NCBI GenBank assembly: GCA_000004985.1
Contig: GG739168.1
Source of the DNA: Naegleria gruberi
Lineage: Eukaryota
Length of the DNA: 5,100 nt
Reading direction: 5' to 3' (one strand)
Shown here: one piece after another, positions 1 through 5,100 of the stretch
Position numbering within the stretch: the stretch's first letter is position 1
Layout: each line of letters starts with the position of its first letter
Position numbers and translations under genes: made by a program
Notes under the pieces: model-generated
Database searches by the model: none
Seen by the model: the letters and a program-made list of their open reading frames with translations, nothing else
What the model was told of the DNA's origin: nothing

Positions 1-1238
1 TATGTTGCAACCTTGCTTTGCTAGCTTCCCCAACTGGATTAGCACAAGGAGTAGATTCCAATTTGATTTATTTTGCTGATTCAAGTAATAATAGAATCAG
101 AGTAGTAACTGGTGCCTCAACTTTGACATCATTAATAATGACAAAAGCTGGAACAGGAGATCAATCAGCTTCTTCAGATGATTTACTGATAGATCCACTG
201 AAGGCCAAGTTCAATACTCCAAGATTAGTGTCTAGGTTAAGCAATGGAAATATTCTGATTGGAGACACTCTCAACTATCGAATTCAGATGATTTCGAATA
301 CTGAAAATGGCGAGAAATTACGAACCATAGTCAATATAGCAGACTCATATGGAAGTTCAGTAATTACAGACATGGTTGTCACCGAGCAAAATACAATTCT
401 CGTCTCCACTATGGATGCAATTTACAACCTGGTGCCCCTTTGTGATATGGGTTATCAACTTGTGAATAACAATACTGAATGCCTTCCTATTTGTTTTGGA
501 TCTCTTGGGCAATTTTCCTGTTCAGGCAGAGGCAAATGTGTAGAGCCAGATAATTGCTCATGCCTTCAGGGACTCTACACAGGAAGTCAATGTGAAATTC
601 CAATATGTTATGGAATTGCTGCAAATGAATCAAGCGTTTGTTCTTATATGAATGGTACTTGTGGAATCAATAATCAGTGTACATGCAAGGATGGATTTTA
701 TGGCAACATGTGTGAGAATCCAATTTGCTTCTCACAAATAGTTGGAGAATCATGCGGAGGTAGTCTCAGAGGAACTTGTATTCATAAGGATAGATGCTCA
801 TGCAATCAACATTTTACTGGAGAGCGTTGTGAATTAAGAATTTGTTCAGGAAAAAGTGAGAATGACACTGAAGTGTGTAATGGACATGGTAAATGTGTGG
901 AAAATGGAAGATGTACCTGTGATGCATTATATTCTGGTTTAGATTGTTCAGATATGAGTCAAATATATGCCTTAGGTATTAGTGCTTCTATTGTTCTATT
1001 GATATTGACTGTATTGGCTGTGGTTTCTATTATATTAGGATTAGTTGTTCATAGAAAGAATAGAAAAGAAAGAAAAATATTGGAAACTGAGCTTTCTCTT
1101 GATGAGAGGTTGCTATCAACTACTGAAGCATATGAATTGTCTATTTCTTCTGCTTCTAGTAATGTTCATTCAACTAATGATGATCCTTCCTCTTTTGTTA
1201 TTCCTCTCCATAAAATTGGAATGGATAAACCAATCAAG
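1..1238 (+). CDS. Exon 1 (5'-partial; reading frame runs open to the window edge, first complete codon at nt 3) of a receptor-like protein kinase gene. It encodes the extracellular NHL repeats, the tenascin-type EGF-like repeats, the TM helix and the juxtamembrane segment. It ends at the splice donor AAG|GTAAGT.
   Basis: About 412 stop-free in-frame codons. The position-18 'M' of the ORF track is really TTG Leu, and the frame stays open upstream to nt 3. Recognisable domain motifs are present (see sub-features). Perfect consensus donor at 1239. Splicing to 1286 continues the frame into the kinase Gly-loop. Confidence 0.85.
3..293 (+). other. NHL-repeat (six-bladed beta-propeller family) segment of the ectodomain. 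At least two repeats are in the window, and more blades probably lie upstream.
   Basis: The protein segments LASPTGLAQGVDSNLIYFADSSNNRIRVV and LIDPLKAKFNTPRLVSRLSNGNILIGDTLNYRIQMI match the NHL consensus (P-x-G-[IV]-A-x-D-x-x-G-x-[IL]-[YF]-[VI]-[AT]-D-x-x-N-[NH]-R-[IV]-[QR]-[VM]-[FIV]). Confidence 0.6.
441..947 (+). other. Cysteine-rich region: an N-terminal Cys cap followed by 4 tandem tenascin-type EGF-like repeats at about 495..608, 609..728, 729..845 and 846..947. The first three are separated by P/R-I-C junctions. Four N-glycosylation sequons (NNT, NES, NGT, NDT) are present.
   Basis: Repeating pattern C-x5-7-C-x5-C-x-C-x2-G-[FY]-x-G-x2-C-E-x-[PR]-I-C with 6 Cys per unit of 34-40 aa. 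Example: CSGRGKCVEPDNCSCLQGLYTGSQCEIPIC. Periodicity is about 114-120 nt. Confidence 0.75.
978..1049 (+). other. Single transmembrane helix (ISASIVLLILTVLAVVSIILGLVV) followed by the basic stop-transfer patch HRKNRKERK (1050..1076). This implies type-I topology with the ectodomain outside and the kinase cytosolic.
   Basis: A 24-residue uninterrupted hydrophobic stretch flanked on the C-terminal side by a Lys/Arg cluster (positive-inside rule). Glycosylation sequons and Cys-rich repeats lie only on the N-terminal side. Confidence 0.8.
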
Positions 1239-1285
1239 GTAAGTTTACTTTCGAATATAACAATGATTTAACAATTTTAATACAG
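1239..1285 (+). other. Spliceosomal intron, 47 nt, phase 0 (GTAAGT...TAATACAG).
   Basis: The donor GTAAGT at 1239..1244 directly follows AAG. The acceptor AG is at 1284..1285, preceded by a T/A-rich tract. The intron is AT-rich and contains the in-frame TAA (1269..1271) that ends the unspliced ORF. Its removal joins ...KPIK to RLGEGGIGSVF (GxGxxGxV) in frame, restoring kinase subdomain I, which neither ORF contains alone. Confidence 0.8.
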
Positions 1286-2191
1286 AGACTGGGAGAAGGT
1301 GGAATAGGAAGCGTATTCATGTCAAAATATAATGGAATGATCGTGGCAGTTAAAGTATTTGATTTAAATAACTTGAACATTTCGGAAGAAGATTTCAAAA
1401 ATGAGGCTATTCTATTAAGCAAACTTCGTCATCCTAATATTATCAATTTTTACGGAGTTTCTACATCACCAACGAAACGTTACATAATTATGGAATGTTT
1501 GGATCAGAGTATGGAGAAGGTGATTGCCAAATTAGAGTTTAAACAATTAACTCTCTCATTGGATCAAAAATTGAAAATGATTCTTAATATTGCTAATGGA
1601 ATTGAATATTTACACAGCTTGAAACCAAGAAAAATCATCCATCGTGATCTAAAACCACAAAATATTCTATTGGATTCGAATGGAAATTGTAAATTGTGTG
1701 ATTTTGGATTGAGCAAATCCATTTCACAAGCAACTGTTTCTGCACTTACTAATCAGTTGGGTACACATTTCTACATGAGTCCAGAAATGTTTGATATTAA
1801 TGCTGTTGATCCTACCTATGCTACTGCAGTTGATATTTACAGTTTCTCAATAATCATGTGGCAATTATTATTCGAAATCAAAGATCCCTACCTCTTTAAA
1901 TCGTCAGAATTATTCCACAAATTGAAAACGAAATCACTTGAACAAGTCTCATCCTATCAGCTTACCAAAATGATTTGTGAAAATAATTATAGACCTTCTA
2001 TTCCATTCCAATCTATCAACGAATGTACAGATTGGTGTACCGAATTTATGAAGTCAGAACTAGGAAATACTTCAACAATTTTCAAATTGGGCCAATTGAT
2101 TAAAGAGTGTTGGCAAGCAGATCCAAAACTCAGACCAAGTATTGAACAAGTTGTAGATCAATTACAATCACTAGAGAATGAGCTTGTATAA
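1286..2191 (+). CDS. Exon 2 (terminal) of the same gene. It encodes the Ser/Thr (TKL-like) protein kinase catalytic domain and a short C-terminal tail. Stop TAA at 2189..2191.
   Basis: In-frame continuation from exon 1 (1286 is 33 nt upstream of the ORF-track ATG at 1319, same frame). Motifs: GEGGIGSV (Gly loop), AVK (subdomain II Lys), E in helix C (FKNEAILL), HRDLKPQN (1640..1648 = HRD), DFG (1700..1708), GTHFYMSPE (activation segment/APE), DIYSFS (subdomain IX), CW..DP..RPS (subdomain XI). Confidence 0.85.
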   Translation, partial: RLGEGGIGSVFMSKYNGMIVAVKVFDLNNLNISEEDFKNEAILLSKLRHPNIINFYGVSTSPTKRYIIMECLDQSMEKVIAKLEFKQLTLSLDQKLKMILNIANGIEYLHSLKPRKIIHRDLKPQNILLDSNGNCKLCDFGLSKSISQATVSALTNQLGTHFYMSPEMFDINAVDPTYATAVDIYSFSIIMWQLLFEIKDPYLFKSSELFHKLKTKSLEQVSSYQLTKMICENNYRPSIPFQSINECTDWCTEFMKSELGNTSTIFKLGQLIKECWQADPKLRPSIEQVVDQLQSLENELV

Positions 2192-2465
2192 TATACTATG
2201 AAACGTGTTGGAAATTGTATCCACCTCTTTGGGTTTGGTTAGGATTCAGAGTTGATTTATTTGGGTTATTTAAGAGATTACTTTGTGAAGATTTATATCA
2301 TTGATTATATTTCTTATCATCTATTAATGATGTAAATTTGATGTTTTCATTTCTTATATTGATAGATATTTAAAGGTCAGGTCAGAACTAACTTTTGAAA
2401 TATGGACTTTGAGAAGTCAAATGTTTGGGACGTGAATCTACTCGTTAGATTGAACAGGTATTGCT

Positions 2466-2471
2466 AATAAA
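2466..2471 (+). promoter_or_regulatory. Candidate polyadenylation signal AATAAA for the kinase gene, 275 nt past the stop.
   Basis: This is the first AATAAA hexamer downstream of TAA 2189..2191. The hexamer is frequent by chance in AT-rich DNA, so the call is weak. Confidence 0.3.
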
Positions 2472-2718
2472 GAAACATTTCATTGATTTATTGATTATAA
2501 CGGTCAAATTGAGTTGAATGGAAGTGAATCTAATGTTGATTGATCGTGGATGGGTAGTTTCGCCACGAAGTGGTGCAACCACCAACCACTACCAACCTTT
2601 GTAGATTGAATCAGGTTGATTTGCATGCAATCTGAAATATGTAGCATGATTCAAGTGATTATTCACCAATTCAATGATCAATATTCAATAATCGGTTTGA
2701 TTTCAATCAATAGCTTAT

Positions 2719-2735
2719 AGCTTGATCATCAAGCT
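2719..2735. repeat. Perfect 8-1-8 inverted repeat AGCTTGAT-c-ATCAAGCT.
   Basis: Direct reading. The arms are exact reverse complements around a single central base. The upstream neighbour TAGCTTATAGCTTGA repeats TAGCTT. Confidence 0.5.
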
Positions 2736-3882
2736 TTGAATTAATATTCCAGTAATTAACGGCAGTCTATTTTTAAATTTAATCAAAGACCATATATAGT
2801 AGCTTGACTTTTATGATATGTACACTATCTAGATGTGTTCTATATTGAATAATCTATTTGAAAATGAGAAGAATTAACTCTTCTATTGAGTTTGGTATTG
2901 CAAGGTATTACGATTATAATAATCTACACAGAAATCACTCTTGAAATATAAACTGTACTACAATGTAAGAGAAACATAATGGTGGTTGAATTAATCAATA
3001 ACTCGTTGAAATGACTGAGATGGAATGTAAACTATGGTCTATTTGTTATGTAATGGTGACTAGACAGTGTCAATTTCATCAAATTATTTCAAACTGATTA
3101 CAATCAATAAAAAAACCACTCTATACACCAAATATACCATACAGAATGAGTTTCAATATTTAATATTGTGAACTGACTCTGTTGGATACCATCTCTATAA
3201 ATATAACAAGATGAAAAGTGTCAACATTCAATTTCACATGCATGTTACTTTGTAGAGTCATCATTATATCATCTAGATAGGTAATATTTCAAGTTTCAGT
3301 GGAATTGACTGTCTAGATATTGAGATATGTTTACTAAGGTTGATGAAGTGTCACCTTCACTGAATCCTGACATGAATATAACAATTGATCATATGATTCT
3401 TGTATAAGTATTTCATTATTCAATAACTGTGATATGATGGTAAAATTTAATTTTGAATTAAGATTCTTCCTAATTGATTTCCTTAGATGTTCCTTAGTTG
3501 ACTTGAAGATACAGAGCCATCAATATGAAACTGTTCCAGATTGTTATCCACATAAAGAGGAGTGTATTCATATTTTACACTAATATGATATTTTGCAAAA
3601 TGAATGGGATGGAGTGTGATCTTTGTGATGAAAGCTGACTTTTTGGAAGAATGATATTATTATCATACTGAATATAATTCTAACAGACTGTAAATGATAC
3701 CATATAATTAATAAAGTGATTTAATATATATGGTAAAGTTATATATTGATTGAACCTACTTTCATTGAGATAGAGAGTTCACTAGGATATAAATACTGTT
3801 GACATTGAACATGAACCGATTGGTTGAATGAAAGTATCATGAATTGTTTCTAAACTTGTTTATATATACTTAAATGATGTCT

Positions 3883-3908
3883 GGGGGTTGGGGTTGGGTT
3901 TGGGTTAG
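3883..3908 (+). repeat. Interstitial telomere-like G-rich tract GGGGGTTGGGGTTGGGTTTGGGTTAG (a mix of TTGGGG, TTTGGG and TTAG units). It has four G-runs and could form a G-quadruplex.
   Basis: Direct reading gives G5-TT-G4-TT-G3-TTT-G3-TTAG. It is the only G-run tract of its kind in the window and sits in otherwise 70%+ AT DNA. Confidence 0.6.
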
Positions 3909-3940
3909 ACGAAAACCCATCGACGACTAACGAACGGCCA
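3900..3940 (+). other. Foldback plus CpG-dense block: TGGGTT-agacgaa-AACCCA (6-bp stem) followed by atcgacgactaacgaacggcc and CCAAT.
   Basis: TGGGTT (3901..3906) and AACCCA (3914..3919) are exact reverse complements. There are 6 CpG in about 30 nt (3909..3937), whereas CpG is otherwise sparse across 2192..5100. Confidence 0.5.
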
Positions 3941-3984
3941 ATATTGAGTATCTGAATTTCATATATGTCATTCAAATATAAATA
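3936..3984 (+). promoter_or_regulatory. Candidate Pol II core-promoter module: CCAAT (3936..3940), then 36 nt of spacer, then TATAAATA (3977..3984). It lies immediately downstream of the GC/CpG-rich block and predicts a rightward TSS near about 4005..4015.
   Basis: Motif order and spacing are classical. No ORF of 60 aa or more follows, so if the module is functional the product would be a non-coding RNA or a gene with tiny exons. TATAAATA also occurs by chance elsewhere (3196, 3788, 4126). Confidence 0.2.
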
Positions 3985-4594
3985 AAAAGCTTATATTGTA
4001 ACGAAGCAGTCATATCTCAAAGTAGTTATAGAGATAATCAACTCTGAAAAAATAAAAGTTAGGTTTTCCCGGTATTACTCTATGAATATGGAGATCGCCG
4101 GTCTGGATTAAATATATGTAGTAGATATAAATATGAGTTGACTATATTCGCAAATAAATTTGAAAAATATCATTGCGTTCAAAAATAATAAGGCACTGCC
4201 TGAAATATTAAGGTTTTTACCCTAGTAGGTCTAAAATTTCAAAGTTGGGTTGAAATGTAAATTTTAATATATTGTAGATATATAGATGAATAGATGATAT
4301 TATGAATTAATCATGTTGAATCGGTGTATTTAATAAGTTACAACATGTTTAAAAATTAACTTTCTAACATTTATTGTACTATTATATGAATGTTATTACA
4401 ATCATCACTAATCTCATATATATGATGTACAATGATGATATTCACATTGTAGAAGTGTTGAAAGTATAATATATAATATCCTTAGTAAACTGTACTCATT
4501 CTACTTTAATTGACCAAGATATTGAGCCATACTATGGAAACACTATACCAATTTATTAAACTTGTTAATATTGTAATAAACATCAAATATAATC

Positions 4595-5068
4595 ATATAT
4601 AATTGAAATAATTATTATTGGATCCATATTCAGACTGTAGGAAGTCAACTTGTGTGAAAATGACAATATCGGTTATTGAAGGATGAATATCTTACATGAC
4701 TTAATTCCACTCATTGATACATGTCTAACTATCATGTTTTATGATATGTAATTGAAATAATTGAAATCTATCATATATATAGGTAGATAACCAATTAGGA
4801 TGAGAGTAGGGGAAGTTACGCTCACTATTTACCAGGTAAACACTTTCAATAGGGACCCATATATTTTATTTGATTATATCGTACATCTATGCATTTTATC
4901 GATAAATAATTGGTTTCATGATTGTATTTTCTATATTTCCAATTTGGGAAGTGTTGCAATGTCAATACTCAATTGAAATATTGCCATAATACCAATTATT
5001 GATTATATTTCATGAAACTGATATTACAGGCTCTAATTGATGTATATATGAATATATAATTGAAATAA
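4595..5068 (+). repeat. Cluster of a recurring AT-rich motif. The exact 17-mer ATATATAATTGAAATAA occurs at 4595..4611 and 5052..5068. TAATTGAAATAATTGAAAT (an internal 9-nt tandem duplication) is at 4749..4767. AATTGAAATA also occurs at 4971..4980.
   Basis: Four copies of AATTGAAATA within about 470 bp and none elsewhere in the window. Two of the copies share an exact 17-mer. Confidence 0.5.
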
Positions 5069-5100
5069 GTGATTTTAGACATTTCTTAATGACATGGATA

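Follow-up and report, generated by a model that had tools for sequence, protein, structure and literature searches.

A probable type-I receptor kinase gene of Naegleria gruberi that joins NHL blades, an EGF stalk and a TKL-group kinase domain

Most of what is understood about single-pass receptor kinases comes from animals and plants, and the pairing of an NHL propeller with EGF repeats is familiar from teneurins, type II membrane proteins built in the order transmembrane (TM) helix, eight EGF repeats, NHL propeller, YD shell and toxin-like C-terminus. PknD of Mycobacterium tuberculosis is a receptor Ser/Thr kinase that uses a six-bladed NHL propeller as its sensor (PDB 1RWL; Good et al. 2004, cited in PMC6107167 and PMC3322341). 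A cross-kingdom survey of transmembrane kinases describes protist ectodomains as lineage-specific, with about 40% of the non-kinase domains lacking a Pfam annotation, and its main text names neither Heterolobosea nor NHL or EGF ectodomains (Yin et al. 2023, PMC10463195). We analyzed a stretch of 5,100 nucleotides (nt) from Naegleria gruberi (contig GG739168.1 of assembly GCA_000004985.1; hereafter the window), in which positions 3-2191 very probably represent the 3' part, two exons long, of a gene encoding a type-I receptor protein kinase that crosses the membrane once. From the outside to the inside of the cell, the predicted protein consists of NHL blades, a rigid disulfide-rich stalk of four EGF units, a TM helix, a juxtamembrane segment and a TKL kinase (Table 1). 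Single-pass receptor Ser/Thr kinases are a well-known kind of receptor, to which this protein adds a new architecture. A preliminary description of this DNA had proposed an architecture of NHL, tenascin-type EGF array, TM helix and Ser/Thr kinase, which Pfam matches, cysteine register, hydropathy and kinase motifs confirm.

Like PknD, the window receptor is predicted to join a Hanks-type Ser/Thr kinase through a single TM helix to an NHL propeller of six blades outside the cell, and the working idea for both is that engagement of the sensor regulates the kinase. PknD differs in that its kinase is N-terminal and its sensor C-terminal, in that it has no EGF stalk, and in that its kinase is of the bacterial PknB type, not TKL. 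With its reversed order, TKL kinase, spliceosomal introns and heterolobosean relatives, the window gene falls outside the PknD type, and the two receptors look like independent assemblies of similar parts, that is, like a case of convergence. Plant RLKs and WAKs are likewise type-I single-pass proteins with a TKL-group Ser/Thr kinase and lineage-specific, fast-evolving ectodomains, which in WAKs contain EGFs. The EGFs of WAKs, however, are of the calcium-binding type and are accompanied by a GUB_WAK domain, and an NHL propeller is absent. Protist transmembrane kinases, such as the EhTMKs of Entamoeba and the TMK clades of amoebae and oomycetes, are alike in kind, being single-pass Ser/Thr/Tyr kinases with group-specific, often cysteine-rich ectodomains that have undergone lineage expansion.

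The window is AT-rich, with a GC content of 37% at the 5' end and 24-30% downstream, and long reading frame is confined to its first 2.2 kb. Frame 3 is open from nt 3 to a stop at 1269-1271, the gene continuing past the 5' edge, and a second open reading frame (ORF) occupies another frame at 1319-2191; called mechanically, the two ORFs span 18-1271 and 1319-2191. The intron that we place between the two exons contains an in-frame stop and has a length that is not a multiple of three. Its removal fuses ...PLHKIGMDKPIK (...IGMDKPIK) with RLGEGGIGSVFMSKYNGMIVAVK (RLGEGGIGSVF...) and thereby restores strand beta-1 and the glycine loop of the kinase in frame, giving a 713-amino-acid (aa) partial protein from the 3' two exons (nt 3-2191). 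Two contigs of the ENA metagenome assembly ERZ929261 carry paralogs, L001 and L002. L001, the closest relative, has a 60-nt GT..AG intron at the identical codon boundary and in the same phase, and the gene caller's product of this locus, P0001, enters the intron and then terminates. The more distant relatives L002, P0004 and P0201 have uninterrupted coding sequence through the position of the window's junction. The splice in the window is thus supported both by the intron at the identical site in L001 and by the continuous coding sequence of the other relatives. ORFs, splice, domains and motifs were found where the preliminary description had put them, apart from two corrections, both of which concern the NHL blades.

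Table 1. Features of the receptor kinase gene in the window (positions in nt).
Feature	Position	Strand	Basis or details
NHL blades 4-6, the C-terminal three of the membrane-proximal six-bladed propeller	3-431	+	Pfam; alignment to P0001 and model
Blade core motif LIYFADSSNNRIRVV	63-107	+	
Blade core motif ILIGDTLNYRIQMI	252-293	+	
Blade core motif ILVSTMDAIYNLV	396-434	+	
Two-cysteine cap/linker C147...C160, from propeller to EGF stalk	441-482	+	Cysteine map
Four tandem six-cysteine EGF units, tenascin/teneurin type	492-593, 606-713, 726-830, 843-947	+	
Single TM helix IYALGISASIVLLILTVLAVVSIILGLVV	963-1049	+	aa 321-349, 29 residues
Cytosolic juxtamembrane segment, ~60 aa	1050-1238	+	Basic stop-transfer and conserved stretch
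Spliceosomal intron	1239-1285	+	47 nt, GTAAGT...TACAG, GT..AG, phase 0
Protein kinase catalytic domain, TKL group, and C-terminal tail	1286-2188	+	Pfam, PDB ranking, alignment A3
Kinase glycine loop GEGGIGSV	1292-1315	+	
Kinase motif VAVK	1343-1354	+	
Kinase helix-C Glu (FKNEA)	in 1394-1417	+	
Kinase motif HRDLKPQN	1640-1663	+	
Kinase motif DFGLS	1700-1714	+	
Kinase motif GTHFYMSPE	1760-1786	+	
Kinase motif CWQADPKLRP	2108-2137	+	
Stop codon TAA	2189-2191	+	

A domain scan of the spliced 713-aa protein with hidden Markov models supported the Pkinase, EGF and NHL assignments alike. For NHL, one Pfam repeat lies above threshold (aa 7-34, 26.6 bits against a gathering cut-off (GA) of 20): only the first blade of the window scores as NHL, and blades 2 and 3 are degenerate. 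We recognized the two degenerate blades through alignment to the paralog P0001, in which window residues ~10-143 align with blades 4-6 of the P0001 propeller (P0001 residues 149-290). An AlphaFold2 (AF2) model of P0001, reaching from its last propeller to the TM helix, contains six four-stranded blades, with a model confidence (pLDDT) of ~65-90 over residues 100-450. This model was used for the fold search in place of that of the window protein, and Foldseek retrieved from the PDB NHLRC2, SOQ1, Pizza6, the NHL domains of Thin/TRIM71/TRIM2 and the teneurin NHL, with E-values of 1e-14 to 1e-11. The Pizza6 designs, which are among the best matches, derive from the PknD propeller. At the level of the family a six-bladed NHL propeller was thus found, with six blades in P0001 and 4-6 Pfam NHL matches in P0201 and P0004. 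Of the NHL beta-propeller proposed for the window itself, the blades stand and the whole propeller does not; the window holds only three blades, because the gene runs past its 5' edge.

The stalk that follows is defined by its cysteines. Over aa 147-315 their register is 2 + 4x6, with C-E-x-P-x-C linking the units; the cap residue C147 and all 24 Cys of the EGF units are invariant in family alignment A1, and all 26 ectodomain Cys are conserved. Pfam EGF_Teneurin (E 2e-12) and EGF_2 (E 3e-12) each match four stretches of the 713-aa product, and EGF_TEN (E 6e-11) remains below threshold with 42.8 against a gathering cut-off of 65. Five N-x-S/T sequons occur in aa 156-289, and the AF2 model of the window protein reaches a pLDDT of 65-82 over the EGF units. 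The TM helix is the top Kyte-Doolittle window (3.25) and is modelled by AF2 as a helix at residues 320-352; a hydropathy scan found no second strongly hydrophobic segment in the 713-aa window protein. Straight after this helix comes a basic stop-transfer sequence, HRKNRKERK (1050-1076), so that the C-terminal part is assigned to the cytosol, and the juxtamembrane segment closes with the conserved stretch DPSSFVIPLHKIGMDKPIK (1182-1238).

In the kinase domain, Pfam Pkinase matches aa 411-703 with an E-value of 4.4e-50 and PK_Tyr_Ser-Thr with 7e-46. The Hanks core is complete. All catalytic residues, already read as present in the preliminary description, were located in the window, and the catalytic positions are invariant across the 11-member family alignment A3, including the HRD and the N of HRDLKPQN, with the K of this motif nearly invariant. 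The kinase is of the RD type and has a Ser/Thr-rich activation segment of 29 residues that ends in GTHFYMSPE; DIYSF was also located, and between subdomains IX and XI there is an insert specific to the family. When the single sequence was searched against the PDB with phmmer, CTR1 was the best match (8e-31, 110 bits), followed by ZAK/MLT, TAK1, CERK1, DLK, Roco4, TNNI3K and B-Raf, and CDK1 (3e-25) and tyrosine kinases (~2e-24) ranked behind these TKL kinases. A profile of 11 family kinases again favored CTR1 (207 bits) over TAK1 (185), ZAK (181), TNNI3K (179), the Src/Abl ancestor and EphB1/Eph receptors (~175), and B-Raf and MLKs (~166). EGFR 9p9u_A, which headed this ranking with 225 bits, was discounted: its chain contains two kinase copies of ~104 bits each. 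Score ranking together with HRDLKPQN and the G-T-x-x-Y-M-S/A-P-E motif therefore places the kinase, as far as its sequence can tell, in the TKL group and with the Ser/Thr type, in agreement with the earlier view that it is not a tyrosine kinase.

Within or near this group, two receptor classes were considered. Plant RLKs scored lower than CTR1 and ZAK in the single-sequence search (CERK1 97 bits, SOBIR1 91 bits), and none appeared among the top 60 PDB matches of the family profile. WAK, LecRK, CRK and LRR-RLK proteins do occur among the kinase-only matches, with ~26-31% identity over the kinase alone, and CTR1/MLK-type kinases outscore RLKs against the window kinase; membership of the RLK/Pelle (IRAK) family is hence disfavored by score. 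As for STKRs of the TGF-beta type, whose hallmarks are a small three-finger ectodomain and a GS region ahead of the kinase, there was no Pfam match to an activin-receptor or GS domain and no STKR chain in the top 60 PDB matches, and the window protein does not fit this class.

The metagenomic paralogs extend the picture beyond the 5' edge of the window. The rebuilt L001 gene has four short GT..AG introns (42-60 nt), and its 1,561-aa product comprises a signal-peptide-like N-terminus, ~1,100 aa of NHL-type repeats, the cap and four EGFs, a TM helix, a juxtamembrane segment and the kinase. Fifteen NHL-type motifs were found in it by regular expression at a spacing of 40-60 residues, and a motif count suggests about 18 blades, which would make roughly three six-bladed propellers, the N-terminal one degenerate; the propeller model covers the membrane-proximal one alone. 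Two of the four L001 introns (1662-1706 and 2256-2301) fall between the A and the D of the NHL motif 'YIAD/YVAD', in phase 1, which suggests that they were duplicated along with the NHL repeats. L002 is laid out likewise and also begins with a putative signal peptide. Both signal peptides, MMIRTRTLNFLCIVLPLALLFISSQ in L001 and MKQHLPFQSVIALVLFACCFF in L002, are hydrophobic and were judged by eye without a predictor. Because the paralogs open with signal-like sequences and a basic stop-transfer follows the TM helix, the sequences support the type-I topology that had been proposed for the window receptor.

Identity between the window protein and L001 differs strongly along the chain, with 44% for the NHL blades, 63% for the EGFs, 46% for the TM helix, 71% for the juxtamembrane segment and 80% for the kinase. 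The juxtamembrane segment is thus better conserved than the EGFs or the TM helix. Judged by these values, the sensor end diverges much faster than the kinase, which is the pattern expected of a receptor with a diversifying sensing surface.

Few database matches span ectodomain, TM helix and kinase, a point on which a word-indexed search and an exhaustive HMMER search agree. The named relatives with the EGF-stalk/TM/kinase core come from N. gruberi, N. fowleri, N. lovaniensis and Percolomonas, and the rest are metagenome contigs; the closest match in any named species has 32-40% identity. No exact or near-exact counterpart of the window protein turned up, and an exact look-up of the exon-2 ORF product gave no match. 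We regard as true relatives N. lovaniensis C9374_014037 (P0004), N. gruberi D2VB11/NAEGRDRAFT_66049 (P0163), N. fowleri FDP41_013523 (P0208/P0270) and the metagenomic P0201, P0003 and L001. In these relatives, as in the window gene, NHL repeats are followed by a stalk of tenascin-type EGFs, the TM helix, the conserved juxtamembrane segment and the kinase; they also have the insert between subdomains IX and XI and a kinase identity of 35-81%; they differ from it in overall sequence (32-57% identity) and in the numbers of propellers and EGFs. The window's kinase subtype is found in ~20 representative clusters at 33-54% identity, most of them with a TM helix upstream. Giant multi-EGF proteins, which dominated the exhaustive search, were rejected as family members by architecture screening, since they have the EGF array alone in common with the window protein, and a scan of metagenome contigs with the window ectodomain gave 199 pattern matches and no confirmed relative.

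The ectodomains of these relatives vary. NHL and EGF occur together in P0004, P0201, P0208, L001 and L002, and P0163 of N. gruberi carries a REJ domain on top of NHL, EGF and kinase. EGF-only ectodomains are present in P0002 and P0158. The Percolomonas protein P0250 combines an RCC1 propeller with the EGF stalk and the kinase, and P0011 of Acrasis kona, a partial model without the kinase, has RCC1 with like EGFs. In P0235 of N. fowleri, Chlamydia-PMP-type repeats accompany a like kinase subtype, with no EGF match. P0250, P0011, P0235 and P0163 indicate that sensor domains were shuffled within Heterolobosea. On the evidence of these domain combinations, the family would be a common stalk-and-kinase core with exchangeable sensors (NHL, RCC1, PMP, REJ).

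Annotations of the relatives read 'predicted protein', 'hypothetical protein' or give a generic kinase label, and the homolog search led to no named family. Literature searches on Naegleria and Acrasis kinomes, NHL, EGF, receptor kinases and TKL found no description of these proteins. The family, found in Heterolobosea and metagenomes only, has no name, its sequences being present in databases but undescribed. The suspicion of a lineage-specific expansion in an AT-rich protist was borne out: the relatives occur in Heterolobosea and metagenomes only, with several paralogs per genome or sample.

Two further sequences deserve mention. L003 (JGI metagenome 3300050380, contig Ga0506620_003941, 277-2706) is a compact, intron-free version of 809 aa in which six NHL repeats, nearly perfect, are combined with four EGFs, a TM helix and a kinase, and JGI labels it 'Bud32'. 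The N. gruberi model P0153 (XP_002679619, 303 aa) contains a kinase only and opens with MDKPIKRLGSGG, a sequence that spans the exon junction of the window. Probably a receptor kinase was annotated here in truncated form, its ectodomain exons having been overlooked.

Several other explanations of the window were weighed. It could contain two genes that are not spliced together, a membrane-anchored NHL-EGF adhesion protein ending at 1269-1271 and a cytosolic kinase starting from the ATG at 1319. This would agree with the two mechanically called ORFs, with prokaryote-style gene calls that divide the related ENA contig likewise, and with the kinase-only model P0153. A kinase translated from ATG 1319 would, however, begin after the glycine loop and lack strand beta-1, whereas GEGGIGSV comes back into frame once the GT..AG intron, canonical and typical in size, is removed. 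The junction is moreover an intron in L001 and continuous coding sequence in L002, P0004 and P0201, and P0153 looks truncated, as its start includes residues encoded before the window junction. Two separate genes are extremely unlikely in our judgment. Equally hard to credit is common descent of the NHL and EGF pairing with metazoan teneurins. Both have the same EGF subtype near the membrane and an NHL propeller further out. The likeness noted earlier holds for the module types only: EGF_Teneurin, EGF_TEN and TEN_NHL models match the window protein and relatives, and Foldseek returned teneurin and 'teneurin-like protein' chains among its matches. Order and membrane orientation are nevertheless opposite, the window receptor being type I and starting with NHL, after which come four EGFs, a TM helix and a cytosolic kinase, as compared with type II teneurins in which the EGFs precede NHL. 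Neither the window protein nor any of the paralog pieces and relatives scanned matched a YD/RHS shell or a Tox-GHH toxin domain at the thresholds used, NHLRC2, SOQ1 and the designed Pizza propellers match in Foldseek as well as or better than teneurin, and EGF_TEN falls short of its gathering cut-off in the window protein.

Two alternatives concern the activity of the protein. The kinase may have dual specificity or effectively be a tyrosine kinase rather than Ser/Thr-specific; tyrosine kinases reach ~175 bits with the family profile against 179-207 for TKL kinases, the subdomain XI motif CW..DP..RP is common to tyrosine kinases, and TKL kinases of Dictyostelium and Entamoeba can phosphorylate Tyr. 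HRDLKPQN and GTHFYMSPE are nevertheless Ser/Thr-type motifs, not HRDLAARN/HRDLRAAN or PxxWxAPE, and the best single-domain matches are Ser/Thr MAP3K-like TKLs, so that we consider such a specificity rather unlikely. The window could also hold a decayed or non-signalling copy, either a pseudogene or a pseudokinase serving as an adhesion scaffold, as its membership of a multi-copy family, the 2.9 kb of gene-free AT-rich DNA behind it and the degeneration of two of the three NHL blades might suggest. Yet the frame is intact over 2.1 kb, conservation extends to all 26 ectodomain Cys and to every catalytic residue, and the 80% identity of the kinase to that of the nearest paralog indicates purifying selection, which makes decay very unlikely.

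A functional type-I receptor kinase of the TKL group is therefore the reading that we favor, and some points weigh against it. The AF2 model of the window protein is poor (mean pLDDT 52.5, from a 5-row alignment), and the signal peptide and propeller number of the window gene are transferred from paralogs with 57% and 40% identity. TKL placement relies on best-hit ranking and motifs, not on phylogeny, and tyrosine kinases are only ~30 bits under CTR1 in the profile search.

Downstream of the gene, positions 2192-5100 form a 2.9-kb AT-rich tail (GC 24-32%) in which no ORF exceeds 58 aa. No tRNA and no credible Rfam match was found in it, its five longest ORFs had no Pfam match, and its repeats are short and of low identity. 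On the L001 and L002 contigs, which are nearly filled by genes, the spacers between gene calls are far shorter than this tail. At 3884-3908 the tail contains an interstitial telomere-like G-strand run, GGGGTTGGGGTTGGGTTTGGGTTAG, of which none is expected by chance (200 shuffles); the run could go back to a past telomere addition or be a piece of some mobile element. The motif ATAT(A/G)TAATTGAAATAA occurs three times (4595-4615, 4744-4764 and 5052-5072; repeat family D1) and could represent either dispersed low-complexity sequence or a motif with a regulatory role.

What the sequence shows is which parts the receptor has, their order, its topology and its catalytic competence, and for the rest of its mechanism we draw on analogy with receptor kinases generally. 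The distal propeller or propellers could bind an extracellular ligand, for example a surface molecule of prey or bacteria, a matrix component or a partner on another cell surface, and the disulfide-rich, N-glycosylated EGF stalk would project this sensor away from the membrane. Dimerization or rearrangement driven by the ligand might then bring kinase domains together, upon which the RD kinases would trans-phosphorylate their Ser/Thr-rich activation loops and juxtamembrane segments. Signalling would proceed on Ser/Thr, possibly also on Tyr, and the unusually conserved juxtamembrane segment may act as a regulatory or docking element.

A broader proposal, for and against which the balance is even, is that Heterolobosea have built their own modular receptor-kinase system, in which a constant chassis, made up of the EGF stalk, the TM helix, the juxtamembrane segment and a TKL kinase bearing the insert specific to the family, is combined with shuffled and rapidly diversified NHL, RCC1, PMP or REJ sensors. 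Such a system would be undescribed and, in one of the deepest branches of the eukaryotes, an independent parallel to the RLKs of plants and the receptor kinases of animals; it could serve the recognition of prey and bacteria or of self, and would make family members in the pathogen Naegleria fowleri exposed surface proteins. Interest in the gene would rise if the sensor-swapping family turned out to be a major receptor system that evolved independently in Heterolobosea. As it stands, the finding extends a known theme to a poorly studied lineage and changes no general principle, while adding to mycobacterial PknD another example of the convergent assembly of propeller and kinase into a receptor. 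The gene and its relatives document a Discoba-specific receptor family with a recognizable sensor, the NHL propeller, and thus offer a starting point for understanding how free-living and pathogenic Naegleria sense their surroundings.

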